Of a stretch of DNA of 60,729 bases, positions 128 to 36,186 are shown piece by piece. A model generated the notes under the pieces. It did no database searches, was not told the DNA's origin, and saw only the letters and a program-made list of their open reading frames with translations. Position numbers and translations under genes: made by a program. Origin of the DNA: a virus (lineage: Duplodnaviria > Caudoviricetes); IMG/VR virus record IMGVR_UViG_3300036760_000452, positions 1-60,729 of that record. One strand, given 5' to 3'. Numbering within the stretch: the first letter of the stretch is position 1; each line of letters opens with the position of its first letter.

Positions 128-628
128 TCTGGCCTTTTCGGCCTCTTCGCGCTCGCGTAGTTTCGCGAGATGCTCTATTGCCCTCGCAGAGAGCCTCTGC
201 ACGTAGGCGAGAAGATCCTCGCCCGGCTTGCGTGGGTGCGTCTCGACCGTCTCCTCGTACACGAGCCGTTCCGTCACGTCGGCGAACCTGTCGTCGCGCG
301 CCGGCATCAGCCCACGACCCTCGATACTGTCGAGGTACTCACGGAGCGAAACGTCCGGTTTCACGCCCCTGATGAACGCCTCGCCGATCTGGTTTCGGTT
401 CCGAAGCGTCTCGCGACTCAAGCGCAGGAGCAGCGATGGCGGAGGGAAGAGCGCCTCGTGCTCGAGCACGTACTCGCACGCCCACACGAAGCTAGCGTCG
501 TCGACGTGCCTCGCTAGGATCTTGTGGTAGGTCGAGATCATGTCCGTCGTGACCTTGCGCCGGAACACGGCGGCCAGGCCGTGAAGTTGGACGGAGACGG
601 TCTCGATCAGCATCGCCACCGATTTCAC
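116..628 (-). CDS. Putative helicase loader/inhibitor (G39P-like) replication protein
   Basis: Directly downstream of the initiator with GTGA overlap; helical N-terminal part ending FPPPSLL, as in phage loader proteins. Confidence 0.45.
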   Translation of the reverse strand: MKSVAMLIETVSVQLHGLAAVFRRKVTTDMISTYHKILARHVDDASFVWACEYVLEHEALFPPPSLLLRLSRETLRNRNQIGEAFIRGVKPDVSLREYLDSIEGRGLMPARDDRFADVTERLVYEETVETHPRKPGEDLLAYVQRLSARAIEHLAKLREREEAEKARGVA

Positions 629-1680
629 TCCTTGAGCCGCGGAAGTACCATAGCAAAGCCCACGTCAGCTTTCAAGTGCTTTTCTTCGACCGGGGTTTCA
701 TCCGGGTGTTCCTCGTAGTACCGGCGCACGGCCTCTTCGCCGGCGCGCTTGTTCTTGGCCTCGAGCTCGTCGCGCGGCGCCCCGGCGGCGCCCACGGGCG
801 GCCCGTCCTCGGAGAGCGCAGCGCGCTGGAGCTTCTCGATCCGATCCCGCCCCTTGTGGACGAACAGGTTCTCGAACCCGAGGTACGCAGTGCCCTTCTC
901 CGAGCCGTTGAACAGCGGGTCGCGCAGCGCGCCCTCGACCGCCAAGCACAGCCCGCGGACCTTGGACGCCATGTCTCCTGGCTCTTCCCGGAGTCTGGTT
1001 ATGAGACGCCTTCGGCGCTCCTCCGTCCACTGCGCCCGGACCTGGTTCGTCTTCAGGCGCCAGAAGTCGAAAACGAGGTGCGCACCCTGAGACTCGTTCA
1101 GGCTCCTTGCGGAAGCCGGTACGTCGGTCGCTCTGACGATCGCAGGCTGAACGACCGCTACCCCCGTCCCGACGTCAGTCGGGACAGATCCGTTGTTCGT
1201 TGTTTCCGTTGTTGTAGTAGGAGTAGAAGAAGGAGACGGAGAAGAAGGGGACCTACGGCCGTAGGTCCTTCGAGCGCTATCGATGGTATCCTTGCTACCG
1301 TCCTTGTCTTGAGCCTTTTTGCGAGGAACATTAGGGTTTCTCGCACTCATGGCTCCAAAAGCTCCGCGCTTTTCCCTCAAGGTTTCATCACGAACCTGAC
1401 GCCTGCTGAAGATAATTCCTTCGGAATTTTTTGAAAAAACGTTGTGATTTTCCAGCTCTGCCAGTAGCCTCCCGACGATCGTTTTGGAGCTTCCGACCAT
1501 CTTCGCTAGCTCCTCCGTGGAGATGCCGTGGCCATTCGTGGCGAGGTGCCCGTAGGGATCGCCCTGGTGTGTGAAGCACAGGATGTCGGCCCACAGACCG
1601 CGGGCGGCGAGGGACGACGCGCGCAGGCCGATGTCCTCGAGCCAGTCCCCGGGGTAAAACTGGAAGGACGGGCGCTTCAC
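625..1680 (-). CDS. Phage replication initiator (DUF1376/YdaU-like N-terminus)
   Basis: Begins KRPSFQFYPGDWL..SLAARGLW; central SPSPSS/TTTT low-complexity linker typical of lambda-O-type initiators. Confidence 0.75.
   Translation of the reverse strand: MKRPSFQFYPGDWLEDIGLRASSLAARGLWADILCFTHQGDPYGHLATNGHGISTEELAKMVGSSKTIVGRLLAELENHNVFSKNSEGIIFSRRQVRDETLREKRGAFGAMSARNPNVPRKKAQDKDGSKDTIDSARRTYGRRSPSSPSPSSTPTTTTETTNNGSVPTDVGTGVAVVQPAIVRATDVPASARSLNESQGAHLVFDFWRLKTNQVRAQWTEERRRRLITRLREEPGDMASKVRGLCLAVEGALRDPLFNGSEKGTAYLGFENLFVHKGRDRIEKLQRAALSEDGPPVGAAGAPRDELEAKNKRAGEEAVRRYYEEHPDETPVEEKHLKADVGFAMVLPRLKE
647..675 (-). promoter_or_regulatory. sigma70-like promoter TTGAAA-17-TATGGT with 14-bp box at 657-670
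   Basis: Inside the 3' end of rep, upstream of the AAGGA RBS of 116..628; box AGCCCACGTCAGCT on the plus strand. Confidence 0.6.
1200..1330. other. Putative replication origin inside the initiator gene
   Basis: Perfect 20-bp palindrome GGACCTACGGCCGTAGGTCC (1249-1268), repeated AAGGAY on the minus strand, purine tract, locally lower GC. Confidence 0.4.
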
Positions 1681-6154: not shown

Positions 6155-6538
6155 TCAGTTTGAATCGCCGAGCTTCACGTCGATCTTGAGGTTCCACTTA
6201 GCAGTGGCGGTATCAGCGACCGAAGCGACGAGGCGCGTGGCGATGTCTCGTGTCTGTTTCGTGAGCTGGCGTGCCACCTCACGCTGGAGCACGTCTTTCT
6301 TGGTCGCGACCCACTCGCGTACTGACGCTTCAATGACCGCCTGGAGCTCGTTTCGGCAGACGAACTCCAAGAACGGGTAGTCCTTGTAGGACTTCGAGTC
6401 GCGGACCTTCTGCGTCAGCAGAAACTCGACCATCTCGCGGATCAAGCGCTCCTGACCCTGGAGCGCTGCCACGACCTGCGCCTGGATGATCGGCTTCAGC
6501 ACGCCCTCCGGAAGCGACACTTGCATCTCGTCTGCCAT
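6155..6538 (-). CDS. Hypothetical protein
   Basis: ORF tiling and natural composition. Confidence 0.65.
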   Translation of the reverse strand: MADEMQVSLPEGVLKPIIQAQVVAALQGQERLIREMVEFLLTQKVRDSKSYKDYPFLEFVCRNELQAVIEASVREWVATKKDVLQREVARQLTKQTRDIATRLVASVADTATAKWNLKIDVKLGDSN

Positions 6539-9412: not shown

Positions 9413-9667
9413 CTAGGCCTCCTTGGCCTTCTTCCAGGTTCGCTTCTGCTCGAGAGTGCGCTCCTCGCAGAAGAGAGCGAGGTCCGTCAGGCACTCCGCA
9501 TCGAAAGACGCCCCGCCTTCCGGGAAGAAGCAGTACCTCCGCCACCACGGGAGCCACCGGATAGTGCCGAGCGGTGCCTCCGCCAGCGTCTCCACCCGCC
9601 AGGGCCGGGTCTTCATCCGCGGCGGCGCCGGCAAGGGAATGATTCGGATCCATCGCGTCTCGATCAC
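9413..9667 (-). CDS. Hypothetical phage protein
   Basis: KTRPW.V..LGTIRW..WRRYCFFP..FDAECL pattern. Confidence 0.6.
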   Translation of the reverse strand: MIETRWIRIIPLPAPPRMKTRPWRVETLAEAPLGTIRWLPWWRRYCFFPEGGASFDAECLTDLALFCEERTLEQKRTWKKAKEA

Positions 9668-9990
9668 TGCGCCACTTCGACTACGTCGATCCGCAGGTAC
9701 TTCTCGTCCACCTCGAGCTCGCGACCGCGAACCTGCGCCTCGTACTCGTCCTCGAAGTCGCCGATCACGACCTCCGCGGCGCTCGGAATCGCCAGCGTCA
9801 GACGGTGGCGCTTCACCATTTCCGGTGGCGCCGGGATCGAAATCTCGAGCGCCGTGTACACCGACCCGCTGTCGATCACCACCCCGTCGATCACGACGCG
9901 GTTGACCCCGTTCTGGCGCGACTCGATCGTCCACCCACGCGCGACCGCCTCACGCTCGATTCCCTTGACGTCCAGCCTGATCAACCTCAT
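9664..9990 (-). CDS. Hypothetical protein
   Basis: AAGGAGG RBS. Confidence 0.6.
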   Translation of the reverse strand: MRLIRLDVKGIEREAVARGWTIESRQNGVNRVVIDGVVIDSGSVYTALEISIPAPPEMVKRHRLTLAIPSAAEVVIGDFEDEYEAQVRGRELEVDEKYLRIDVVEVAQ

Positions 9991-10060
9991 GCCAGCCTCC
10001 TTGCTGAAACTCCGCCTTTCACCGACCCCCACTCCCGCACCGGGGGCCCCTTCTGGCGGG

Positions 10061-10522
10061 TCAGGCCCGATGCCTCCGGTACGTCCTATCCCGGTGGCAA
10101 TTCGCGCACACCAGGTCGCACTTCGCGATCTCGGCCTCAACCGCCTCTAGCGTCGGCCCAATCTGCCTCGCGTGCGATAGCGCGAAGAGCTTGGCCCCGC
10201 GCCCCGGCACGTGGTCGAACTCCATAACGTGGGTCGGAAACTCGCCGCCGCAGTCCAAGCACGGTCGGCCAGCTTTCGCTGCCGCAACCGCTGCCCCCGC
10301 AACCGCCCTGGCGTCCAGCATCCCCGGCGTCGGGCGCTTCCTTGCCACCGCCACCCTAGCCACCTTCGGCCTTGCTGGCTCCACCAGCAAAGCCACGAGC
10401 TCGGCGCACTCCTGTCGGATCTTGGACATCACCCCACGAAGCCGGCGTTGGTCCTCTCGCTCCTTCTCGTCTTCTAGCCCAGCTAACTCGAACTCCAGCA
10501 ACGTCGGGCGCCTATCCTTCAT
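10061..10522 (-). CDS. HNH endonuclease
   Basis: CLDCG..MEFDH..EIAKCDLVCANCHRDRT. Confidence 0.8.
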   Translation of the reverse strand: MKDRRPTLLEFELAGLEDEKEREDQRRLRGVMSKIRQECAELVALLVEPARPKVARVAVARKRPTPGMLDARAVAGAAVAAAKAGRPCLDCGGEFPTHVMEFDHVPGRGAKLFALSHARQIGPTLEAVEAEIAKCDLVCANCHRDRTYRRHRA

Positions 10523-10595
10523 GGCTGGACTCTGGCCCAGGCGCGAATCCGCCGCACCCAAGAGCCTAAAACCTGATCGCAAATCGCCACAAACC

Positions 10596-10859
10596 TCACC
10601 CGCGGGGCGCCCGAGCGCGAAGAGGATCGTCCGCCAGCCTCAACCGCTTCGTCTCCCGATCAAACGACGCCCTGCACGCGTCCTCCCACCGAACAGCCTC
10701 CCACTGCTCTCGCGCCCGTCGACGACCCTCCACAGCAGGATCGCTCGGTGGCCCATCCGCCACCCGCGGAAACACAGGGCCCCTGGCCACCCACCCAGTC
10801 ACCACCCCAACCAGCAGCAGCAACAGCCCCCGCACAGCGTCCCACCCACCCAAGTCCAT
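10596..10859 (-). CDS. Putative membrane protein
   Basis: Hydrophobic GLLLLLVGVVTGWV. Confidence 0.4.
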   Translation of the reverse strand: MDLGGWDAVRGLLLLLVGVVTGWVARGPVFPRVADGPPSDPAVEGRRRAREQWEAVRWEDACRASFDRETKRLRLADDPLRARAPRG

Positions 10860-11064
10860 GACCCGCAATATACGCCACCTTGCCCACGATGGCAAGGCCG
10901 AAAAGTGGCAGCGGGCAGAGAGGGGGGGGCCCCCGGTAGGTGGATGGGGGGCCGGCCTCCAGGAACCGATAGGGTGCCCGCCTGGCGCTCGAGGCGCGCA
11001 GCCGAATGGGCTGACCGATAACGCCGCGGATAACCTAACTCCTTTAGAATCAATGACAGTAACA

Positions 11065-11092
11065 AGGGGACATAAGTTTCATTATCGGAAGC
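11065..11092 (-). other. dif-like XerC/XerD recombination site
   Basis: GCTTCCGATAA-TGAAAC-TTATGTCCCCT: 11-6-11 layout with ATAA/TTAT inner dyad and TTATGT XerD core; AT-rich non-coding island. Confidence 0.65.
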
Positions 11093-11262
11093 TGCTGACA
11101 GGTCAATGACTTACAACCCTCAGATGTGACTCGAGTACGGCAGCAGCCCCCCTGCTCTCCTCTCATCCAGGCCGCCGGCAGCGCATTCGGGAGGCCACGG
11201 GCGCCGAGCTGCCGCCGGCGAATCGCGGTCGATTGCGCCCTGGGCCGCATCTTTCGCGCTCT

Positions 11263-11301
11263 ACCTGTTACCTTTGGTAACGAAGTGCACCATTTGGTGC
11301 A
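11263..11301 (+). promoter_or_regulatory. Paired palindromes GTTAC-N5-GTAAC and TGCACC-ATTT-GGTGCA
   Basis: Dyads at 11267-11281 and 11286-11301 in the divergent control region; the first recurs at 48190-48204. Confidence 0.5.
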
Positions 11302-11440
11302 GTCGATGTTTTCGGCTGCCTCGGCGAACGGACGGCGGCCGTGGGGTTTGCGGTCTCTCCCTGTTCCCATGAGGACTGGTCTCTTGGGGTTGTCTCGCTT
11401 CCGGCTGGCGTTGGCGAAGTGGGGGGTGCAGATTGGAGGC

Positions 11441-11794
11441 ATGATCGAACGAGCAGAGCCGACGCGGCCCGGGTGTCCTGCCATCCCGGCAGGCTACGGG
11501 ACGAACCCGCAGGATTGCGCGTGCGGCGCGTGCGAGACGGTCTACAGCGACGAACGGCAAGCGGCCGAGGCCGAGGCCTCACTGCGGCGGGTGAGCACGG
11601 CGACGGCCTACGACTACGAGGCGCAGTGCTGGGTCAGGGGCCCGGCGGCCGAGCGGCTCATCCGGCAACAGGCGAGGGACACGCTCGCCGTCATCGACCG
11701 GCCGAGCTACCGTCGCATGATGGGCTACACCGACGCCGAGGCCGTTCGGATCAAAACGCGGGCCCTAGAGCTCGCAGGGGAGAACAAGTCATGA
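11441..11794 (+). CDS. Hypothetical early protein
   Basis: GGAGG RBS; ATGA overlap with next gene. Confidence 0.6.
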   Translation: MIERAEPTRPGCPAIPAGYGTNPQDCACGACETVYSDERQAAEAEASLRRVSTATAYDYEAQCWVRGPAAERLIRQQARDTLAVIDRPSYRRMMGYTDAEAVRIKTRALELAGENKS

Positions 11795-12123
11795 GCAGCA
11801 GTCCGGTTACGTCCGTTCGAGACGCATCGGTCAGCGTCGTCTTCGTCTACCGCCCGAACAGCCCCAGGAGGCTGGTGTGCGAGGCCGAGGTCGTCTTCTC
11901 GGACGGCCCGCTGGGGGGCATGAAGCTGGTCGGCTTCTCGCTGTGGCGCTCGCCCGAGGGCGAGGTCTACGTCACCTTCCCGTCCCGTGCGGTCGGGGCC
12001 TCGACCGATCGGCGCTTCTTCGACTACCTCCGATCGGTCGAGGGGAACGGAGCGGACGCGAAGCGGGTCAAGGCGTGGATCGTCGACGCCTACAGGCGCG
12101 AGCGCGAGCCCGAGCAGGCGTAG
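11791..12123 (+). CDS. SpoVG-like nucleic-acid-binding protein
   Basis: LVCEAEVVF..KLVGFSLW..GEVYVTFPSR..RFFDY parallels the SpoVG strand pattern and FV.MPS motif. Confidence 0.6.
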   Translation: MSSSPVTSVRDASVSVVFVYRPNSPRRLVCEAEVVFSDGPLGGMKLVGFSLWRSPEGEVYVTFPSRAVGASTDRRFFDYLRSVEGNGADAKRVKAWIVDAYRREREPEQA

Positions 12124-25595: not shown

Positions 25596-26006
25596 CTACG
25601 GGCCAAATATCTGGCCTGCGAGAATGACGTGCACGTCACCGAGCAGGCCGACTACCTGGTCGCTGCGGGTCGGGCTGCTACGGGCAAACGTCTGGCCAGA
25701 GAGGATCACTCCCCCGTCTCCTGGCAACCCCAGGACATCGGCTGGCTTGTGCGTGTGCGGCGTCGGCATGCGTGGCGACAGCGCGTCCTCCGTGGCCGTG
25801 ATCGTATCCTCGATCTCCGTCAGTGTCTCTTGCGTGATGTCGGTCGAGTCACGGAGCGACTCGAGATAACGCTGCAGCTCGAACATCGCGTCGTCCCACG
25901 CCTTGCGGATCGCCTCGCCATGTTCAGGCGAGAGGCCTGGGATGTCCTGGAGCCGCAGTCGGCCGACGAGGCGCGGAACGGCGAGGACGTGGCTGCGCGC
26001 AGGCAT
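25596..26006 (-). CDS. Hypothetical tail-associated protein
   Basis: HTH.PADV.GL repeat-like motif of fibre proteins. Confidence 0.55.
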   Translation of the reverse strand: MPARSHVLAVPRLVGRLRLQDIPGLSPEHGEAIRKAWDDAMFELQRYLESLRDSTDITQETLTEIEDTITATEDALSPRMPTPHTHKPADVLGLPGDGGVILSGQTFARSSPTRSDQVVGLLGDVHVILAGQIFGP

Positions 26007-29000
26007 CAGCTACGCTCCATCGCACGGCGCGCCACGACGGGGGCGACGCGCTCGCTCGCTGCGTCGCGAGCGTCGCGGTAGAGGTCCTTCAGCATCTTCT
26101 CCTGGCGTAGCGGGTCGAGTCGCTTGAAGCGCGGGTCGGAAGCGAGCCGGCGCGCGCGCTCCGTGGCGACCCTCATGAACCTGGCGTAGACCTCGCGCTC
26201 CTTCTGGTGGAGCTCGCCTTTGCGCCCGCCGGATCCGGGGATGGTGATCGTCTTCGGGGGCCGCGCCGGGAAGTACCCGACGTCGAGCATGAGCCGCTCG
26301 AGGTCTGCCTCCTTCCCGGCTTCGTGCCGGTAGCGCACCGGCGAGACGAAGCGCGAGAGCGCAGACTCCTCGCGCTTGAGCGGCTCGCCCGTCCCCTCGA
26401 GCTTCGCTGGCAGCAGCCGGGACACGCCGGGGATCCTGCTCGCGATCGTCGGCAGGATCAGGCGCGCGGCGCCAGGCATGTCCTCGTCGCCGCCCGTCTC
26501 CCGCACGTACGGGTCGGTGGCGCGCGCCGCCGCGGCGACGAGGTTCGGCACGGCGAGTGCGCCGGCGAACTTCTTCACGTACGTGCTGCCGAAGCGCTCC
26601 GGATCGTGGACCGCCTCGATCATGCCTGAGATCCCTTCGAGGTAGCTCTTCGACATGATGTTGTTCGTGGCGGTGGCCACGAGCTTGTCCGCGACGTCGC
26701 CAGCCTTCTTCGCGTTCTTCGTCTCGGAGAGGTCGGCCGCGAGACCCAGCACCGTGGCGAGCGGCTCGAGGCGCGCCATCGACACCCACGTGTCTCCGAT
26801 GCGCACGGAGTACGGCTCCTTGCCCGTCTTCTTCCAGGCCGCGAGTTCCTTCGGGTCGGTGGGCCCGGAGCCGGTGAGCACGCCCGCCTCGGCCATGCCG
26901 TAGAGCCCGGCCGAGATCATGGTCCCCCAGATCCCCTTCGCGAGCTCGTCGGCAGACCGGCCGCCCTTGATCTCTCCCTTCGCCGTCCGGCTGATCGCTC
27001 GCGCCAGGCCGAACGGGGTGCGCGCGAGCGCCTGCGACAGGATGCGGCTCGGAGTTGAGATGAACGGCACGAAGAGCGTGAGCCACGGGTGCGTCCCGCG
27101 CAGGCGCAGCGCGGCCTGCGTGAAGGCGCCGGGGAGATCCTGGAACGTCGACTCGCGCGCTGCGTCCTCGGCAGCCTTGCCGATGCGGTTGAGGCGGGCG
27201 TTGTAGTACGTCGCCTTCTGCGCATCGGAGAGTGCCTTCTCCCCGTTGATGCTGCGCAGCACGTCGACCTCGCGCCAGGTCTGCAGGTCCTTCAGGAGCG
27301 CGGCCGTGTGCTGCTCCATGTGGCCCTTGAGCTCGGGCCCTTCGAATCCTTTGGCCCGGCCGGTGTTGAAGGCCTCGCGGTAGACCTCGCCGGCGATCTG
27401 GGCCTCGTAGGCGCTCGAACGCGCGGCCATGTCGAGCGAGCGAAGCAGGCGGCTCGGCGTGCGCCACACCTTGCCCAGCGTCCCGCCGAGCGCGGCCGGC
27501 CGGAACTCGCCCTTGAGGCCTGCGCCCTCCGGGTCCCACGGATCCTCGTGCAGCGTGCGGCGGACGATCTCCTTGACCGAGCCCTTCGTGAAGCCGAGGC
27601 CGTGCTTCCAGTTCGCCTTGAACGCCTCGAACGCCTCCTCCGGCAGGCGCTCCGGAGCACGGCCCTCGCTGGCGGCGCGGCCCTTCTCGATGAGCCCGGC
27701 GATGTACCGCTCCGGCGTGCGCATCAGCAGCTCGTGGCCGGCGTTGCCGAGCACGTTCGCCGCCGGCGTCGGGATCGACGAGAGGATGTTGTTGATGAAG
27801 TACTCGTTCACCTTGTCGATGAGCGTCGGCTTCATGACCTGGCGGCCGAGCTCCGTCAGCTTCGCGTGGTCCTTCGCCAGGACCGCCTCGGCGAGCTTGT
27901 CCATGAGCGCTGGGTCGACGGCCTTCTTCATGTTGAACTTCACCGCCTGCTGGTAGAGCCGCTCCTCGGGGCTGAGGGTCTCCGAGAACTTCCGCAGGAT
28001 GGCGAGGGCGCGCGCGGTCTCGGCGCCGGCTGCGGTCGTGTGTGCGGTGATCGAGCCCCAGCGCGCGGCGGCGGCGAGCATCTCCTCTTCGGCCGCGGCC
28101 AACTCCTCCGGCTTCGCCGTCTCGGACTGCTTCAGAGCGTCTGCCACCTTGCGCTTCGAGACGAACGACTCCGCCGCCTGCTCTCGCAGAATACGGCCGC
28201 CTTCCATCTCCGCATCGGTGACGACCCCGCGCTCCTTGACCAAGCGCTCGAAGGTGGCCTTGTCGAGGCCGGCGGAGACGGCCTGCTTCCGAGCCTCTTC
28301 CCAACCGCGGTACTCGCGGTTCTTGTTCAGCGTGTCCTTCACCGCCTCGGTCATCCGGTGCTGCGCCTCGCGCATGTCGGCGTCGGTCGTCAGGCGCTCA
28401 ACGTTCACCGGGAAGTTGGTCGCCTTCGGCTTCTCGCCGGGGCGGAGCGGTCCCTCGAAGGCTGCCATGCGCGCGGCGTCCTCGGCGGTCGGAACTGTGA
28501 CTCGCTCCTGCATCCCGAGCGCTGGCTTGCGCGGGCGCGGAGCGGACGGCGCCACGGCGGCAGCGGGTGGTTCAACGCGCGGTGGGGGAGGTGCGGCCGG
28601 ACCGGCATCCGACCTCGGTCCCTCGGCGCTGACCCAGCCCCACAGGTTCCGAAGGCCCTTCCATCCGCTCCCGATCTGGCGACCCATCTCGCTCGCCCAG
28701 CGATCGAAGGTGGTGAACCCCTGGCGCAGCGCACGGGCGCCGAGCACGACGGCGTCGCGGACCACGTGATACGGCGCCAGCAGCAGGTCGAGTGACACGG
28801 CGCCGCGCTCACTGCCTCGCTTCAGAGATCGCCTCGTCGCCTCTGTGCGTGCCTCTGCCATGCGGATCTTGGCCCCGGCCTCGAACGCCTCGAGCTCCGG
28901 CCCGGCGGACGGGACGTCGGCGAGACCCATCTCCCTGGCCGCGGTCTCCCTGAGCGTTTGGATCGCCTCAGCAACTCCTGGATCGACCGGCTCCTTGCTC

Positions 29001-32000
29001 TGCCTGGCTGCCTCGGCCTTTCGCTCGAACGCGTCCCATGCACGGAATGCGTTGCCTTTGTAGGACTCGAGCGCCTGATCGAGCATGCTACGCCCGCGAC
29101 GGTAGCTTGCGTCCCGGTTCGCGATGTCCACCGCCTCGTGCACCTCGAGCTCAAGCGGATTGCCCTTGTCCTTCTTGAGCGCCGCGGCCATCTCCTTCGG
29201 CGAGGCGGCGATGTCCTCGAGCGGAGTGCCGCGCTTCGCCGAGTTGACCCCGTACCAGCCGGCCGCAGCACCGCCCTCGCGGGCCACGTCGAAGCCGACC
29301 TTCCCGGCCTCGTCCAAGATCGGGAACTGCCCGGTCGGCTGGGCACGCTCGGAAGCTGCCGCCTCGTCGACGACGCTCTTCGCCGCGGCGTGCGCCTCCG
29401 CCCGGCGCGCTGGTGTCCAGTCCTCCTGACCCGGCAGGATCGGGTTGCCCTCGGCGTCGCGCGGGGGCTCGGGGACCTTGTTCCACCGCACCCGCCCCTT
29501 GGCATCCTTCGCCGCCTCGATCGCCGCCTCGTGTGCTTCTACGGCCGCGCGCGGCTCAAGGAGTTGGGGCGCCTTCTTCCCCGTCTTGAGCGGCGAGACG
29601 ACGGCGAGCGGCAGGTTGCCGGGGCTCTCGATGGCGCCACGGTAGGCGACGGCCGGGAGCTTTCTGTCGATGAACCACGTGACCGGGCTCTTGCCGGCTG
29701 CACGGACCACGTGTCCGTAGTAGCGCGCGTCAATCGCGGCGTCCGGGACACCCTGCCCCACGAGCCAGACGTAGTCCTGTCCGCCGGCTGTCTCGACGCT
29801 CTGGACGGTGGCCTTCGTGGAGGCTTCCTTCGCCCGGGAAATGAAGCTCTCGAGCGCCTCGGGGCTGATGGGCTCGACGTTCGCTGCCTTCGGCGCCTTG
29901 CCGGCAACGAGCATGTTCCCGTCCGAGTACCACTCCGCCCCGCGCGCCTCGCCAGAGGCGATCTTGTTTCGGGTGCTCTGGAGCTGGCGTGCCGTCAGGC
30001 TCTTCGGCTTGAAACTCTCGATCGACCGCGCGGCCCGCTCGGCGGTAGGCTCCGGCGATGGACCTGCCGGCGCTGGAGCGGTCGGCGCTTCCGCTGGGGC
30101 CGCTACTCGCTCTCCTGCAGGTTCTCCAGAAACTCCGCGTGTATCGCGTCCGCGTACAGGTCCAGGTCCTTCTCCGGATCGGGAAGTGAGCGCGCCGCGG
30201 TAGACGGCTTCGGAGATCCGCCCTTCGGCGCGGGCGGCCTCGAGTTCGGTGCGGAGCTGGTCGGTGAGCTGTTCACGGGTCAAAGATACATCCTCGACCC
30301 CCCTTACGTCCATCGCCTTCGCTTCGCCTTTCGGCCCGCTGTTGTCGGTGACGCGGATCCTGATCCTCGGGTCGCCGGCGTACTCCTCGGCCAGGCGGCG
30401 GATCATCGGACGCGACTTCAGGTGCCCGTCGACGACATCGTCCATCGGAACGATCCGGCCGCGCTTCATGGCGCGCTGGAGCACAGACTTCCACGCCTCG
30501 AGCGGCTCGCGGTAGACGTACTCGACCACCACCTTCCGGCCCGCAGCGAGCGCTTCGTCGATCCGACCCTTGGCGCTCTCGTAGTTCGCAAGAGTCGAGT
30601 CGAGAACCACGTTCGCCTTGCTGAGCAGGCGGTCCATCCTCCGCGAACTCAGACCCGAGGTCTTGCCTGTACCGGATGCCCCGGCGGTGAAGACCACCAC
30701 CGCGCTCTCGCCCTCTGGCACCGGCTCCTTCAGGATCTTGGAGAACACCATCCTGGCGAGCGTCGAGGACGGCTCGTGGACAGCAGCCGAGAGCGCGGCG
30801 CGCGCCTCGTTCGACTTGGCGTAGTCGGGCGAGAGCTCCTTGTAGTCGTCGGCCGAGATGTTCTTCCCGAACCGGCGGCGGGCTTCGGCGATGGCGCGGC
30901 GTGGGCTCTCCTCGATCCAGGACGCGAAGCGCTCCTGGGCATCGCCCTCCAGGCCCTCGAGCGGGGAGCGCTCTACCGTGACTTCAGGCTCGGCGACAGC
31001 CTCGGCTCGCTTCCTGCCCTCGGGGGTAAGCTTGTAGTGCTCCCCCCTTCGACTGTACTGGACGAGGCCTCCCTCCTCCATGAGCCGCAGCGTCCGGATC
31101 GCCTTCTTCTTCTCGACACCACGCTCCCCGAGCATCGTGCTCGTGACGCGGCCTCCGGGCGAATCGTAGGCGGTGCGCAGCGCCTCGCTCTCGAAGTCCT
31201 CGAGTTCCCTCTCTCGGCTCGCGCCAGGAGCCACCTCCCGCTTTCTGGCGGCTCTGGGAATCCGGACGGGAGCCGGCGGAGCGAGCTCGACGAAAGCCGG
31301 TGCCGGCATGGGTACGGGGACCTCGGGCGCGAGCGGTGGCGGGGGAGGGCCTGTGACCGCAGCAGGAGGTATGTCGGCTCGCGCCGCGAGGTCCCTAGTC
31401 GGGCCCTCGACGACCACTGGAGGGGCGGGGCCACCGACGTCCTGGCCGGCCACCCGGTCTCTCGCCGCCTGGATGAGCGCGGCCGTCTTCTCCCCGACCG
31501 ACGCCCCGGGAGGCAGCTCGGGCGTCGCCCCTGCCGGCCCGATGCCGGCTCCGGCCATGGTCGCGGCGCTCTGGGCCACTTCGGCCTGTGGCGCCACGCC
31601 GGGGGCGGGGGGAGGAAGCGCTGGAGGTCCTGGAGCCATGGCGCCCGCAGGAGCCTCTGGAGCGATCGGCTGCGGCGGGATGGGCGGCGGGGGCGCCGCG
31701 GCGGCCTGTGGCGCGCCAGGCGGCAGCGCGGGCGGCATCGTAGGAGCCGGCAGGGACGGCATCGGGTTCTGCCGAAGCTGGGCGTCGAGCGAGCCGACCG
31801 CCGTCCTGAGCTTCGCCCGCTGCAGCGGGTTCTGCTCGTCGGCCAGCATCCGGACAAGGCCGGACCGGATTGCGAGCATGCGGGGGCGGTTCTGTGGCTG
31901 CTGTACCACATCAACCGACACGCCCGGTGTGGCGTACGGCTCGCGGAGCGATGCGGCCGCACCCGGCTGGGACTGCCAGGCGGCTTCCCGCACCCCCTCA

Positions 32001-33115
32001 CGAAGCTTGATGAGCTGGGCGGCAGTGTGGGTGTCGTTCTCGGCGATGGCCAGGCGCAAGCGGTTGTCGATCTCGCCGACGACGGAGGCGTGCGCCCGGA
32101 TGTTGAGTTCCTCCGGCACGCGGGCCACGTTCGCCGGCGACGGTCGGGCGGGTGCCGGGAGTGCTGGACCGGACCCGGGCGGCAGGCGAGGCATGGGCGG
32201 CCTGAGTAGGCGCGCCTCGATCGGCTGGGCCAGCTCGAGCGCACTCGGCTCAGGAGGCGGAGCCTCTGGAGGCACCATGCCGACAGGCCCGCGTCGTGCA
32301 ACCGCCGTCCCACCGCCACGGCCAGCGAACTCTGGGGCCATCTCGAAGCCGCGCTCGCGTGCCGCGCGCTCCGCCATGAGCTCGGGGTGGAGGTAGAATC
32401 CTGTCTCCTCGGGCGGCGCGGTCGCAGAGGGTTCGACAGGTCGTCCACCACCCGCCGTCACGCCCGGCCGTTCGGCCACCCGAACTGGTTCCACCGTGCG
32501 CCGCCCGATGGTCCGCGCGAGCAGCGGCCAGGTGAGCAGGCCTGCGTCAACGCCGACCTTGGCGAGTTCCTCGGCAACGGACGGGGTGAAGCCCTGCGCA
32601 CGGAACTTCTGGTACGCGCCCTTCCCTCCCTCGTACATCCCGTGGGTCATCATGGCCATGAAGCCCGCGTGCATCGCCTTGCCGGCGAGCCCTGGAACCT
32701 TCGCGGACATGAGCGTCATCGCGAGCGGGTCGGTGAGGATCCTGGTGGCGCCCTCGGTCAGGCCGCGGCCAATGGCGCGTGAGTACTTCTCTCCCGAGCT
32801 CATGCCATCCTCGGGTGGCCCGATGAGCCCCTCCTTGGCGAGCACCTCCGAGGGGACCGGGTCGGCCCCGGAGAGCACACGGTCGCGCAAGTACGGGTTC
32901 GAGTAGTAGTTCGTCGCGATGTCCACGCGCTCCTTCGCGGCGCCGAGGACGGAGCCGATCGCGCTGCCGGCTCGAGAGGGTAGCCCCGGCTCTGGCTCTT
33001 TCGGGGGCCGCGCCTTGGGGATCGTGAGCGGACGGCGCTTTCGCTTCGGCAGGAGCTCGGCCGGCTCGTCTGCCGCGATCAGCGCGTCCGCGTATTCCTG
33101 GAAGTTCACAGGCAC
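26006..33115 (-). CDS. Giant internal virion/ejection (polyvalent) protein with wHTH and zeta-toxin-like P-loop domain
   Basis: 2369 aa; C-terminal LTGSGP.D..W...G.EPYSVRIGDTWVS..RLEP..LG.AAD typical of podovirus large internal proteins; FTAGASGTGKT..VLDSTL..RGRIVP..DNSG. Confidence 0.75.
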   Translation of the reverse strand: MPVNFQEYADALIAADEPAELLPKRKRRPLTIPKARPPKEPEPGLPSRAGSAIGSVLGAAKERVDIATNYYSNPYLRDRVLSGADPVPSEVLAKEGLIGPPEDGMSSGEKYSRAIGRGLTEGATRILTDPLAMTLMSAKVPGLAGKAMHAGFMAMMTHGMYEGGKGAYQKFRAQGFTPSVAEELAKVGVDAGLLTWPLLARTIGRRTVEPVRVAERPGVTAGGGRPVEPSATAPPEETGFYLHPELMAERAARERGFEMAPEFAGRGGGTAVARRGPVGMVPPEAPPPEPSALELAQPIEARLLRPPMPRLPPGSGPALPAPARPSPANVARVPEELNIRAHASVVGEIDNRLRLAIAENDTHTAAQLIKLREGVREAAWQSQPGAAASLREPYATPGVSVDVVQQPQNRPRMLAIRSGLVRMLADEQNPLQRAKLRTAVGSLDAQLRQNPMPSLPAPTMPPALPPGAPQAAAAPPPPIPPQPIAPEAPAGAMAPGPPALPPPAPGVAPQAEVAQSAATMAGAGIGPAGATPELPPGASVGEKTAALIQAARDRVAGQDVGGPAPPVVVEGPTRDLAARADIPPAAVTGPPPPPLAPEVPVPMPAPAFVELAPPAPVRIPRAARKREVAPGASRERELEDFESEALRTAYDSPGGRVTSTMLGERGVEKKKAIRTLRLMEEGGLVQYSRRGEHYKLTPEGRKRAEAVAEPEVTVERSPLEGLEGDAQERFASWIEESPRRAIAEARRRFGKNISADDYKELSPDYAKSNEARAALSAAVHEPSSTLARMVFSKILKEPVPEGESAVVVFTAGASGTGKTSGLSSRRMDRLLSKANVVLDSTLANYESAKGRIDEALAAGRKVVVEYVYREPLEAWKSVLQRAMKRGRIVPMDDVVDGHLKSRPMIRRLAEEYAGDPRIRIRVTDNSGPKGEAKAMDVRGVEDVSLTREQLTDQLRTELEAARAEGRISEAVYRGALTSRSGEGPGPVRGRDTRGVSGEPAGERVAAPAEAPTAPAPAGPSPEPTAERAARSIESFKPKSLTARQLQSTRNKIASGEARGAEWYSDGNMLVAGKAPKAANVEPISPEALESFISRAKEASTKATVQSVETAGGQDYVWLVGQGVPDAAIDARYYGHVVRAAGKSPVTWFIDRKLPAVAYRGAIESPGNLPLAVVSPLKTGKKAPQLLEPRAAVEAHEAAIEAAKDAKGRVRWNKVPEPPRDAEGNPILPGQEDWTPARRAEAHAAAKSVVDEAAASERAQPTGQFPILDEAGKVGFDVAREGGAAAGWYGVNSAKRGTPLEDIAASPKEMAAALKKDKGNPLELEVHEAVDIANRDASYRRGRSMLDQALESYKGNAFRAWDAFERKAEAARQSKEPVDPGVAEAIQTLRETAAREMGLADVPSAGPELEAFEAGAKIRMAEARTEATRRSLKRGSERGAVSLDLLLAPYHVVRDAVVLGARALRQGFTTFDRWASEMGRQIGSGWKGLRNLWGWVSAEGPRSDAGPAAPPPPRVEPPAAAVAPSAPRPRKPALGMQERVTVPTAEDAARMAAFEGPLRPGEKPKATNFPVNVERLTTDADMREAQHRMTEAVKDTLNKNREYRGWEEARKQAVSAGLDKATFERLVKERGVVTDAEMEGGRILREQAAESFVSKRKVADALKQSETAKPEELAAAEEEMLAAAARWGSITAHTTAAGAETARALAILRKFSETLSPEERLYQQAVKFNMKKAVDPALMDKLAEAVLAKDHAKLTELGRQVMKPTLIDKVNEYFINNILSSIPTPAANVLGNAGHELLMRTPERYIAGLIEKGRAASEGRAPERLPEEAFEAFKANWKHGLGFTKGSVKEIVRRTLHEDPWDPEGAGLKGEFRPAALGGTLGKVWRTPSRLLRSLDMAARSSAYEAQIAGEVYREAFNTGRAKGFEGPELKGHMEQHTAALLKDLQTWREVDVLRSINGEKALSDAQKATYYNARLNRIGKAAEDAARESTFQDLPGAFTQAALRLRGTHPWLTLFVPFISTPSRILSQALARTPFGLARAISRTAKGEIKGGRSADELAKGIWGTMISAGLYGMAEAGVLTGSGPTDPKELAAWKKTGKEPYSVRIGDTWVSMARLEPLATVLGLAADLSETKNAKKAGDVADKLVATATNNIMSKSYLEGISGMIEAVHDPERFGSTYVKKFAGALAVPNLVAAAARATDPYVRETGGDEDMPGAARLILPTIASRIPGVSRLLPAKLEGTGEPLKREESALSRFVSPVRYRHEAGKEADLERLMLDVGYFPARPPKTITIPGSGGRKGELHQKEREVYARFMRVATERARRLASDPRFKRLDPLRQEKMLKDLYRDARDAASERVAPVVARRAMERS

Positions 33116-34787: not shown

Positions 34788-35354
34788 TCAGTAGCCGGCA
34801 CGCTGGCGCGCGCGGTCCTGCTCCATCTGCGCCTGGAACAGCGCGTCTGAGCGCGAACGGTTGATATCGCTCGGAGCGAGCCCGCCCTCCATCGTGTTCC
34901 CGCCAGGGAGGAAGCGCGCTCGCTGCGCACCCGTCATCTTCAGCGGGTCGGGCGTCGCGAACGTCTGCATGCCTATGGTGGACATGCGCGTCGGCACGCG
35001 CCCGGTCGCGGCCTGCGTCTCGGCCACGTCTCGGGCGAGGGCGTTTTCCTTCATCCTCTTGGTGAACGGGTCCTCTGTGGCATAGGGGCTAACCCTGGCT
35101 CCCCGCGACTTTTTCTTCTTCTCGGCCAAGTCGAATTTCGCGTTCTCACGCGCGAGCCGCGACATCGCGAGCTTCTCCTCCGCCGCACCCTGCGCGAGCG
35201 GAAAGAGCGCTGCGAACATCGCGTTCGGATCAGCGGCGAACCCCCCGCCACCTGCGCCCGCCGCGGTGCCCCCGCCGCCCATCGTTCCGTCCGCGTCGAC
35301 AGACGCCACGTGAGCCCCGCTCGGCCCCCAGCCGCTACGCCCCATGATCGCCAT
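34788..35354 (-). CDS. Putative internal virion protein
   Basis: Gly-rich N-terminus, helical. Confidence 0.65.
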   Translation of the reverse strand: MAIMGRSGWGPSGAHVASVDADGTMGGGGTAAGAGGGGFAADPNAMFAALFPLAQGAAEEKLAMSRLARENAKFDLAEKKKKSRGARVSPYATEDPFTKRMKENALARDVAETQAATGRVPTRMSTIGMQTFATPDPLKMTGAQRARFLPGGNTMEGGLAPSDINRSRSDALFQAQMEQDRARQRAGY

Positions 35355-35364
35355 TGCGCCCTCC

Positions 35365-36186
35365 TCAGAACCCGACGTTGACGTTGAGCATGTTCGAGAG
35401 CATGCCCATCCAGGCGTTCTGCGCCGCCTGGTTCGCAGCCATCCGGCTGGTCTCCGCTCCGTAGCTGCCGAGCCAGTAGTTCATGAGCTGGCCTTCCTCG
35501 TTGGAACTCTGCGCACGCTGCGCGAGAGCGGTCTGGCTTGGCGCCTGCACGATCCCAGTCCCCGACGTGTACGCCCCGGCTCGAGCGCCGAGCGTCTCGT
35601 CGATCTTGCCCTCAGCGAACTTCTTGCCCTCGGCGCGTCCGCCGGCCTCGATCTTGGCGATTTCACGCATCGCGGCCGCTTCGTCGAACGGCACGCCTGC
35701 CTCGCGAGCGCGTTGACGTGCCTCTTGGAGCCTGGCCGTGGTGGACTCGCGCGCCTGGCGCTGCTCCTCCTCCATGAACTGCCCGCCCTTGGTCTTCAGG
35801 TCGGACAGACGCTCGTCGTACCCGCCAAGCACCTTGGCCTGGTAGTCGGCCGAGTACTTTGTGAGCTCGGGCGGCGGCTCTGCTGTGGTCCTGCTCGCGG
35901 TCACGACCGGGAGGCCGGACGCTCCGGACGCGCCACCGGCTGCTCCGGCGCCACCTCCGGCGGGGGCGCCGATCGGCGGTCGAAGCGCCGCTGTACCGCC
36001 ACCGACGGCCGCTGTGCCACCGCTGTAGCCCACCCCGCTTGAACCTCCAACACCACCACCGCCGATGCTGCCAGGCCTCGAGAGCTTGCCTGACGCGTTC
36101 GTGGAAAGTGCGGTGCCGCCAGACAGACGGGACCTCTCGGCCTGGGGCAGCGCGTTCCACTCTTCCTGTCGGACTCCGTAAGGCAT
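35365..36186 (-). CDS. Putative internal virion (ejected) protein
   Basis: Gly-rich, coiled coil, amphipathic C-terminus typical of pilot/ejection proteins. Confidence 0.65.
   Translation of the reverse strand: MPYGVRQEEWNALPQAERSRLSGGTALSTNASGKLSRPGSIGGGGVGGSSGVGYSGGTAAVGGGTAALRPPIGAPAGGGAGAAGGASGASGLPVVTASRTTAEPPPELTKYSADYQAKVLGGYDERLSDLKTKGGQFMEEEQRQARESTTARLQEARQRAREAGVPFDEAAAMREIAKIEAGGRAEGKKFAEGKIDETLGARAGAYTSGTGIVQAPSQTALAQRAQSSNEEGQLMNYWLGSYGAETSRMAANQAAQNAWMGMLSNMLNVNVGF

Follow-up and report, generated by a model that had tools for sequence, protein, structure and literature searches.

A dif-like 28-mer, possibly a substrate of host XerC/XerD, in a tailed phage with no recognised recombinase

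A single dif-like 28-mer, GCTTCCGATAA-TGAAAC-TTATGTCCCCT, lies at 11065-11092 on the minus strand of the tailed-phage genome described here. We hold, with about as much belief as doubt, that this element is a substrate of the host's XerC and XerD recombinases that mimics the host dif site and is carried by a phage without a recombinase of its own. This sequence-based reading follows from the uniqueness of the site, the conservation of its arms, the freedom of its centre and its likeness to an element found in the probable host clade. The 28-mer has the layout of a Xer core site, with an 11-6-11 arrangement, an inner ATAA/TTAT dyad and a single copy per replicon. In the mechanism that we propose, XerC would bind the GCTTCCGATAA arm (11092-11082) and XerD the TTATGTCCCCT arm (11075-11065), and the pair would exchange strands across the central hexamer TGAAAC (11081-11076). 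The sequence and strand of the element, first given in a sequence-only reading of this DNA, were confirmed at these positions.

The window, that is the whole stretch of DNA analysed, is the complete IMG/VR record IMGVR_UViG_3300036760_000452, 60,729 nt in length and 67% GC. Its first and last 127 bases are exactly alike; since identical ends of this kind represent the overlap of a circular assembly, we take the genome to be a circle of ~60.6 kb. The earlier description of the virus as a tailed phage is borne out by a large terminase of the Terminase_6 type (Pfam) and by a full set of head and tail genes, whose capsid, portal-region and tail members are common to relatives. Among GenBank phages, megablast found no close DNA relative, and the best matches of the large terminase (TerL) were below 40% identity. 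Genes, called by a GC3-based method, form two transcription units. The leftward unit runs from 10859 round the circle to ~22.9 kb and carries genes for an HNH endonuclease, a DHH phosphoesterase, RecE-/RecT-like proteins, an O-like replication protein and RusA, followed by the packaging, head and tail genes. Its first gene (10596-10859, minus strand) encodes a small protein with no family match. The rightward unit, from 11441 to ~22.2 kb, consists of genes without a known family together with a DUF3560-methyltransferase, and is likewise headed by a gene with no family match (11441-11794, plus strand). The open reading frame at 26006-33115 on the minus strand (2369 aa) probably encodes a tape-measure or giant tail protein; its C-terminal ~930 aa are 54% identical to the homologue in the closest relative of the phage, G006.

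Six-frame searches of the genome with the recombinase profiles PF00589 and PF00239 produced no match at E<=1, and no recombinase appeared among 40 phage proteins compared with PHROGs and 40 compared with Pfam (partly overlapping sets). As far as tested, the phage is therefore integrase-less, as had been claimed. No repressor or other lysogeny gene was recognised among the proteins scanned against Pfam and PHROGs, no tRNA or tmRNA was found in the 60,729 nt, and Rfam gave no match in 10500-11900 at E<=1.

The two transcription units are separated by the sole large divergent intergenic region of the genome (10896-11440, 545 bp), within which the GC skew changes sign. The 28-mer sits there in a low-GC island of about 100-150 bp (11000-11150), with 47-48% GC against 63-75% in the surrounding DNA. 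The first leftward gene can start without this island, because a canonical sigma-70-like promoter, TTGCCA-17-TATATT (10867-10895, minus strand), directly precedes its ATG at 10859; one such promoter was found, against a shuffle mean of 0.1. Two palindromes, GTTACC-TTT-GGTAAC and TGCACCA-T-TGGTGCA, adjoin each other at 11266-11300, in the interval from the dif-like site to the first gene of the rightward unit, and look like operators. Both this phage and G006 have long G-run/C-run palindromes (GGGGGGGGCCCCC-like) in their divergent intergenic regions, at 10923-10940 here and at ~35720 and ~35940 in G006.

The cumulative GC skew minimum and the AT-rich island coincide at ~10.9-11.1 kb, as they would if the island were a replication origin placed at the change of skew sign. 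We regard this explanation as highly improbable. The change of skew falls where transcription reverses direction, iterons are lacking, and the O-like gene (625-1680, minus strand) offers a better candidate: its positions 1200-1450 fall to 44-51% GC and contain a perfect 20-bp palindrome (1249-1268) as well as a run of A/T. The sole low-GC island of G006 lies in the homologous gene, and the stretch at 1200-1450 is the probable origin.

The inner dyad of the 28-mer is rare. ATAA-N6-TTAT occurs once in 60,729 bases and in none of 100 shuffled genomes; with the GT extension and up to one mismatch allowed, it again occurs once, and at least one match appears in 6 of 100 shuffles. These figures are subject to a look-elsewhere effect, as the 28-mer was picked from very many windows and a generic dif core could be a lucky find. 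A canonical promoter at the 28-mer itself is unlikely: the hexamer GATAAT is present, but the sole TTGAC-like hexamer lies 14 nt away. Both this phage and G006 have canonical promoters with 17-nt spacing elsewhere in the same intergenic regions.

Relatives were sought by TerL and capsid searches of IMG/VR. The closest, G006, is a 56-kb record of the same architecture, with 61% identity in TerL, 71% in the capsid protein and roughly 40-70% across proteins overall. A more distant group comprises G009, G012, G013 and G017, with capsid identities of 61-66% and RecE/RecT genes divergent from the structural genes. G006 has a single ATAA-N6-TTAT, which lies inside its own sole large divergent gap (35267-36171) in the same orientation as in our phage. 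Around this dyad, an ungapped block corresponding to 11070-11113 is identical at 32 of 44 positions, and outside it the intergenic regions of the two phages do not align. The block takes in the inner part of the XerD arm as well as the XerC arm, and runs on for 21 nt past the latter. Of the 22 arm positions of the 28-mers, 17 are the same in both phages, as are 2 of the 6 central ones; the XerC arm reads TTCCGATAA in both phages, and the flank past the core of this arm is identical at 17 of 24 nt. The block is thus off-centre on the 28-mer, as the outer XerD side has not been kept. An accessory or activating protein may bind the 21 nt conserved past the XerC arm. IMG/VR classes G006 as a provirus, yet its site is intact in the interior of the record, whose ends lie within phage genes.

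Conservation of the site in relatives, which had been named as a check, is found in part. It extends to G006, at the same position and orientation, and not to two complete genomes of the distant group. G009 has no CCGATAA-N6-TTAT even at two mismatches and no outlier on the weight matrix described below, and G012 has no exact copy, its one match at two mismatches not being an outlier on that matrix. Searches for PF00589 in G006, G009, G012, G013 and G017 gave nothing real, and the lone match (10.7 bits) falls on the site itself.

Further searches of viral contigs were made with neighbouring genes and with the site. The protein of 11441-11794 has no relative there, and a RecE profile returned no new relatives. 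Contigs matching the HNH protein (10061-10582) are unrelated phages with only the C-terminal domain in common, and TerL was present in none of the five records tested. A small conserved protein encoded at 11791-12123, which has no family in Pfam or PHROGs, retrieved G009, a true distant relative, along with G010 and G011, which are not relatives. The pattern AGCA-N2-TTCCGATAAT-N5-TTAT has seven loci in viral contigs: G006 and six unrelated ones (five low-GC, four of one family; one of 55% GC). The pattern TCCGATAATG-N3-CTTATGT has 21, among which L120, L133 and L139 include the XerC arm but lie within open reading frames of unrelated phages.

The conserved 44-nt block could instead be the binding site of a phage or host protein other than Xer, an operator or an unusual early promoter, whose likeness to dif is coincidental and was inherited by both phages. 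The block lies in the sole divergent control region, between the two early operons, and the GATAAT on the minus strand, present in both phages, matches five of the six bases of a -10 hexamer. The off-centre position of the block and the further palindromes at 11266-11300 also point this way, and since the two phages are related, their shared likeness to dif counts as one coincidence rather than two, in a 28-mer that was in any case chosen from many windows. Conversely, there is no -35 hexamer at a distance of 16-18 nt, the block is present as a single copy, unlike operators, which usually come in sets, and the dyad is limited to ATAA/TTAT. Furthermore, the weight-matrix score of the site is a far outlier in both genomes, and its arms are kept while its centre is free, as in recombinase core sites. 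We consider a non-Xer binding site possible, though on the doubtful side, and retain a host-Xer core site as the preferred reading.

The sequence-only reading had also proposed two TCAATGAC boxes flanking the 28-mer as accessory-protein sites. The boxes are present on the plus strand at 11050-11057 and 11103-11110, with the spacing of 53 bp that had been given, but a role as accessory sites is not upheld. TCAATGAC occurs three times in the genome (the third copy at 6330) against a shuffle mean of 0.72, a count reached by 3 of 100 shuffles and so marginally above chance. In X2, a near-identical strain found in a different sample, three substitutions fall in the left box (11054 T>C, 11056 A>C and 11057 C>T), and nothing recognisable corresponds to this box in G006. 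The right box falls inside the conserved flank on the XerC side; it reads TCAGCGAC in G006, with five of eight bases kept.

The probable host is a planctomycete. When a capsid profile was run over one genome per species, the only matches were two contigs of 4-5 kb, both binned in MAGs of Planctomycetota, one of which belongs to the Thermoguttaceae, order Pirellulales. We scanned 81 genomes of Pirellulales for CGATAA-N6-TTATGT, a pattern taken from the phage, and nearly all exact matches fell on one element. The 20 copies fetched read ACGTCCGATAA-TGT[C/T]TC-TTATGTTCGGT with minor variants and have unrelated flanks, with inverted repeats of at least 5 nt in only 7 of the 20. A second scan of 151 genomes of the order, with the 22 arm bases ACGTCCGATAA-N6-TTATGTTCGGT and up to three mismatches, found the element in 141, as a single copy in 136 and as two copies in 5; the reversed control pattern matched once. 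The arms are almost invariant, and the centres include TGTTTC, TGTCTC, TGTCTG, TCGCTC, TCACTC and TCTTTC, among others. A XerD equivalog above the NCBIfam curated cut-off and a close paralogue were detected in all six order genomes tested.

On these sequence grounds, we propose the 28-mer ACGTCCGATAA-TGTYTC-TTATGTTCGGT as a candidate dif of Pirellulales. It has a CCGATAATG...TTATGT core in common with the dif of Frankia alni given in the available part of Kono et al. (PMC3025954), a text which also records the failure of dif prediction in Planctomycetes. In G069, a complete genome, the element (L099; G069:C1:97596-97623, strand not given) lies between convergent accA and cvpA-like genes, and these neighbours dismiss the idea that it accompanies a recombinase gene. 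Position does not confirm it as the terminus dif, since it lies 134 kb from dnaA and away from any GC-skew switch, in a single genome with noisy skew sampling. Two of the MAGs with two copies, G101 and G056, were considered as possible carriers of an IMEX, an integrative element that exploits Xer, and were rejected because the flanks of their copies are shared, which identifies the copies as strain duplicates.

Compared with the host consensus, the phage site agrees at 20 of 28 positions (9/11 + 3/6 + 8/11, in the order XerC arm, centre, XerD arm) and the G006 site at 18 of 28 (9/11 + 1/6 + 8/11). On a position weight matrix (PWM) built from 20 host sites, the phage site scores +15.9 bits and the next best site in the genome +0.5; this score was reached in 1 of 1000 shuffles of the genome, 3 of 20000 of the intergenic region and 1 of 20000 of the island. 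The G006 site scores +9.6 bits against -0.5 for the next best, a value that 10 of 1000 shuffled genomes and 1 of 20000 shuffled intergenic regions attain, while the best scores in six control high-GC phage records (G009-G013 and G017) were all <= -1.2 bits. The phage-derived search pattern had set 12 of the 28 positions in advance, and at the other 16 the phage site matches the host at 8, modestly above chance. G006 provides independent support, because it had no part in the design of the pattern. With this outlying score, and with a version of the site at the same position in G006, the term dif-like is supported in a specific sense, that of likeness to the candidate element of a probable host order, including by the matrix check that had been suggested for it. 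The phage site also agrees at 18 of 28 positions, by the author's count, with the Frankia alni dif as quoted in the available part of PMC3025954.

The phage and host elements differ at specific positions. The central hexamers, TGAAAC in the phage and TGTYTC in the host, share their first two bases and their last, and the site of the true host may differ from the consensus. Centres of TGAAAC or TGAAGC were found in 0 of 151 order genomes, among the sites listed, and in 0 of 401 phylum genomes, where the sole match to a degenerate pattern was TCAACG. In the XerC arm both phages have TTCC where all listed order genomes have GTCC, and TTCC-type (TTCCGATAA-type) sites occur in only 10 of the 401 phylum genomes. 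The host may therefore belong to another planctomycete clade.

A match of 8 in 16 host-specific positions outside the generic core could arise by chance, or could mark the decaying relic of a host dif acquired by an ancestor and now without function. The same 17 specified bases do occur inside the open reading frames of L120, L133 and L139, and the site is absent from G009 and G012. Nonetheless, G006 keeps the place and orientation of the site amid intergenic DNA that cannot otherwise be aligned and with proteins only ~40-70% identical, and the matrix scores are seldom reached by shuffles, so that we think chance or decay quite improbable.

If the site is indeed a Xer substrate, it may be used for integration and excision at the host dif, in analogy with IMEX elements. 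We put this forward tentatively and regard it as doubtful, with a slight lean towards integration because no partition or plasmid-maintenance gene was seen. The absence of an integrase, and the TG beside the XerC arm that is common to the host sites, speak for it. The failure to recognise a repressor among the scanned proteins, and a centre that no sampled host has, count against it. Integration at the host element would leave hybrid sites of the form ACGTCC...TTATGTCCCCT or GCTTCC...TTATGTTCGG.

Integrated forms were sought in several collections. No integrated copy or hybrid junction was found in the species representatives, in 401 genomes of the order or in the sample contigs, and the capsid profile run over the 401 genomes gave one match, the 4-kb MAG contig already known. 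Given the thin sampling, this absence lowers the IMEX claim without excluding it. Two pattern scans of metagenomes gave no matches and were uninformative, as the free phage itself is absent from them. The phage is present in two sediment runs from different studies, X1 and X2, whose contigs cross the site unbroken (9500-11712 and 9500-11776, respectively), with no joint reported at 11076-11081, though contigs can hide rare forms. A third run, X3, holds only short pieces of ~90-95% similarity, none spanning 11043-11264, and is likewise uninformative. The earlier proposal, of integration at host dif or resolution of plasmid-prophage dimers, thus keeps its two premises, the missing integrase and the likeness to dif, while integration itself is unproven, with neither prophage nor junction seen in the species representatives, the 401 genomes or X1 and X2.

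The X2 strain differs from the phage by 10 substitutions over 2277 nt, nine of which are concentrated within 10996-11077. The last substitution of this patch, at 11077, lies in the central hexamer and changes it to TGAAGC; neither arm is altered, and no change occurs further rightward. A crossover at the site would produce such a patch of divergence ending in the centre; this is a single case. The unchanged 11-nt XerD arm alone is not significant.

Alternatively, the 28-mer may be a Xer substrate that serves solely to resolve dimers or multimers, either of a plasmid-like prophage or of replicative circles made through RecE/RecT, and never to integrate. We rate resolution of multimers of the circular phage DNA as about as likely as integration, or slightly less so, and its exclusive form likewise as unlikely. 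A centre that is unlike that of every sampled host and varies by strain (TGAAAC/TGAAGC) would be harmless between two identical phage sites, and resolution alone would also account for the lack of any integrated copy. Assembly yields a circular genome whose ends overlap exactly over 127 bp, RecE/RecT-like and RusA genes are present, and the conserved stretch lies on the XerC side, where cer and psi carry their accessory sequences. On the other hand, the scanned phage proteins, many of which have no match of any kind, included none recognisable as a ParA/ParB/ParM-like partition protein or a plasmid-type replication protein, and a lytic phage with headful packaging has no obvious need of dimer resolution. 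The plasmid prophages described in the available part of PMC8026635 mostly have their own recombinase and a partition system.

Dif-like sites were also observed in other viral records. The record G819, an unrelated 52.8-kb tailed phage with TerL and portal genes (PHROGs) and no PF00589 match, carries TGGTCCGATAA-TGTTTC-TTATGTTCGGT at positions 102-129 on the minus strand (L182; G819:C1), 110 nt from the record end. This site agrees with the Pirellulales element at 26 of 28 positions, including the centre, and its outer XerC-arm bases are not those of the host. The contig ends in a tandem repeat, and the site could be an attP or a joint between prophage and host. Given G819, the use of Xer sites may not be confined to one phage lineage. 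Dif-like 28-mers were further noted on the unrelated IMG/VR contigs L122, L125, L126, L127, L132, L135 and L136, in some cases a few hundred bases from the locus end; these may represent proviruses next to dif, or further elements that exploit Xer. The broadest form of our proposal would be that integrase-less tailed phages of Planctomycetota lysogenise through host XerC/XerD at the chromosomal dif, that this phage is the first tailed-phage IMEX and G819 a second such phage, and that ACGTCCGATAA-TGTYTC-TTATGTTCGGT is the long-missing dif of Pirellulales. Taken as a whole, we think this rather unlikely.

If the site works, the lack of an integrase in tailed phages recovered from metagenomes could no longer be equated with the lack of a temperate lifestyle. 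As by-products, the analysis provides a candidate dif, open to experimental test, for an order whose phylum had defeated an earlier genome-wide prediction (PMC3025954), and a simple recombination substrate for planctomycete genetics.

In full-text literature searches, assessed from listings, abstracts and parts of papers, no account emerged of a tailed phage dependent on host Xer, or of a dif site in Planctomycetota. The available part of PMC5357621 names filamentous phages, satellites and genomic islands as the known exploiters of Xer. The attP sites of the IMEX elements that it describes (VGJ-phi, TLC-phi and difGGI) resemble the phage site in several respects: the elements have no integrase of their own and a single 28-bp dif-like site, the XerC arm is well kept and the outer XerD arm poorer, and the phage centre agrees with that of the host in its TG, next to the XerC side, and in its final base. 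Sites of the VGJ type, according to the same part of that source, agree with the dif centre on the XerC side only. The present case differs in that the carrier is a 60-kb tailed dsDNA phage rather than a filamentous phage, satellite or genomic island, it probably infects a planctomycete, integrated forms have not been observed, and three of the six central bases are unlike those of the commonest host site.

The plasmid sites cer and psi offer a second comparison, as they too place a dif-like core on an extrachromosomal circle, use host XerCD (here predicted) and have conserved DNA by the XerC arm. Their accessory sequences lie on the XerC side and form a region much longer than 21 nt, whereas the conserved phage flank extends for only ~21 nt and no plasmid-maintenance genes were seen. 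PepA, ArgR and ArcA act at psi and cer in the available text of 10.64898/2026.02.23.706985. Cre-lox in phage P1, and likewise the Xer-like recombinases that plasmid prophages encode, as described in the available parts of PMC5357621 and PMC8026635, share with our phage the setting of a tailed phage in which one site keeps circles monomeric, or in our case would do so; they differ in encoding their own recombinase, of which none is detectable here. The chromosomal dif itself has the same 11-6-11 layout and the CCGATAATG...TTATGT core, while the present site is borne by a phage, has other outer arm bases and has a centre not seen in the sampled hosts. With IMEX attP sites, cer/psi and Cre-lox as its nearest known counterparts, this system differs from them in its carrier, a 60-kb tailed phage without a recombinase, and in the phylum of its probable host.
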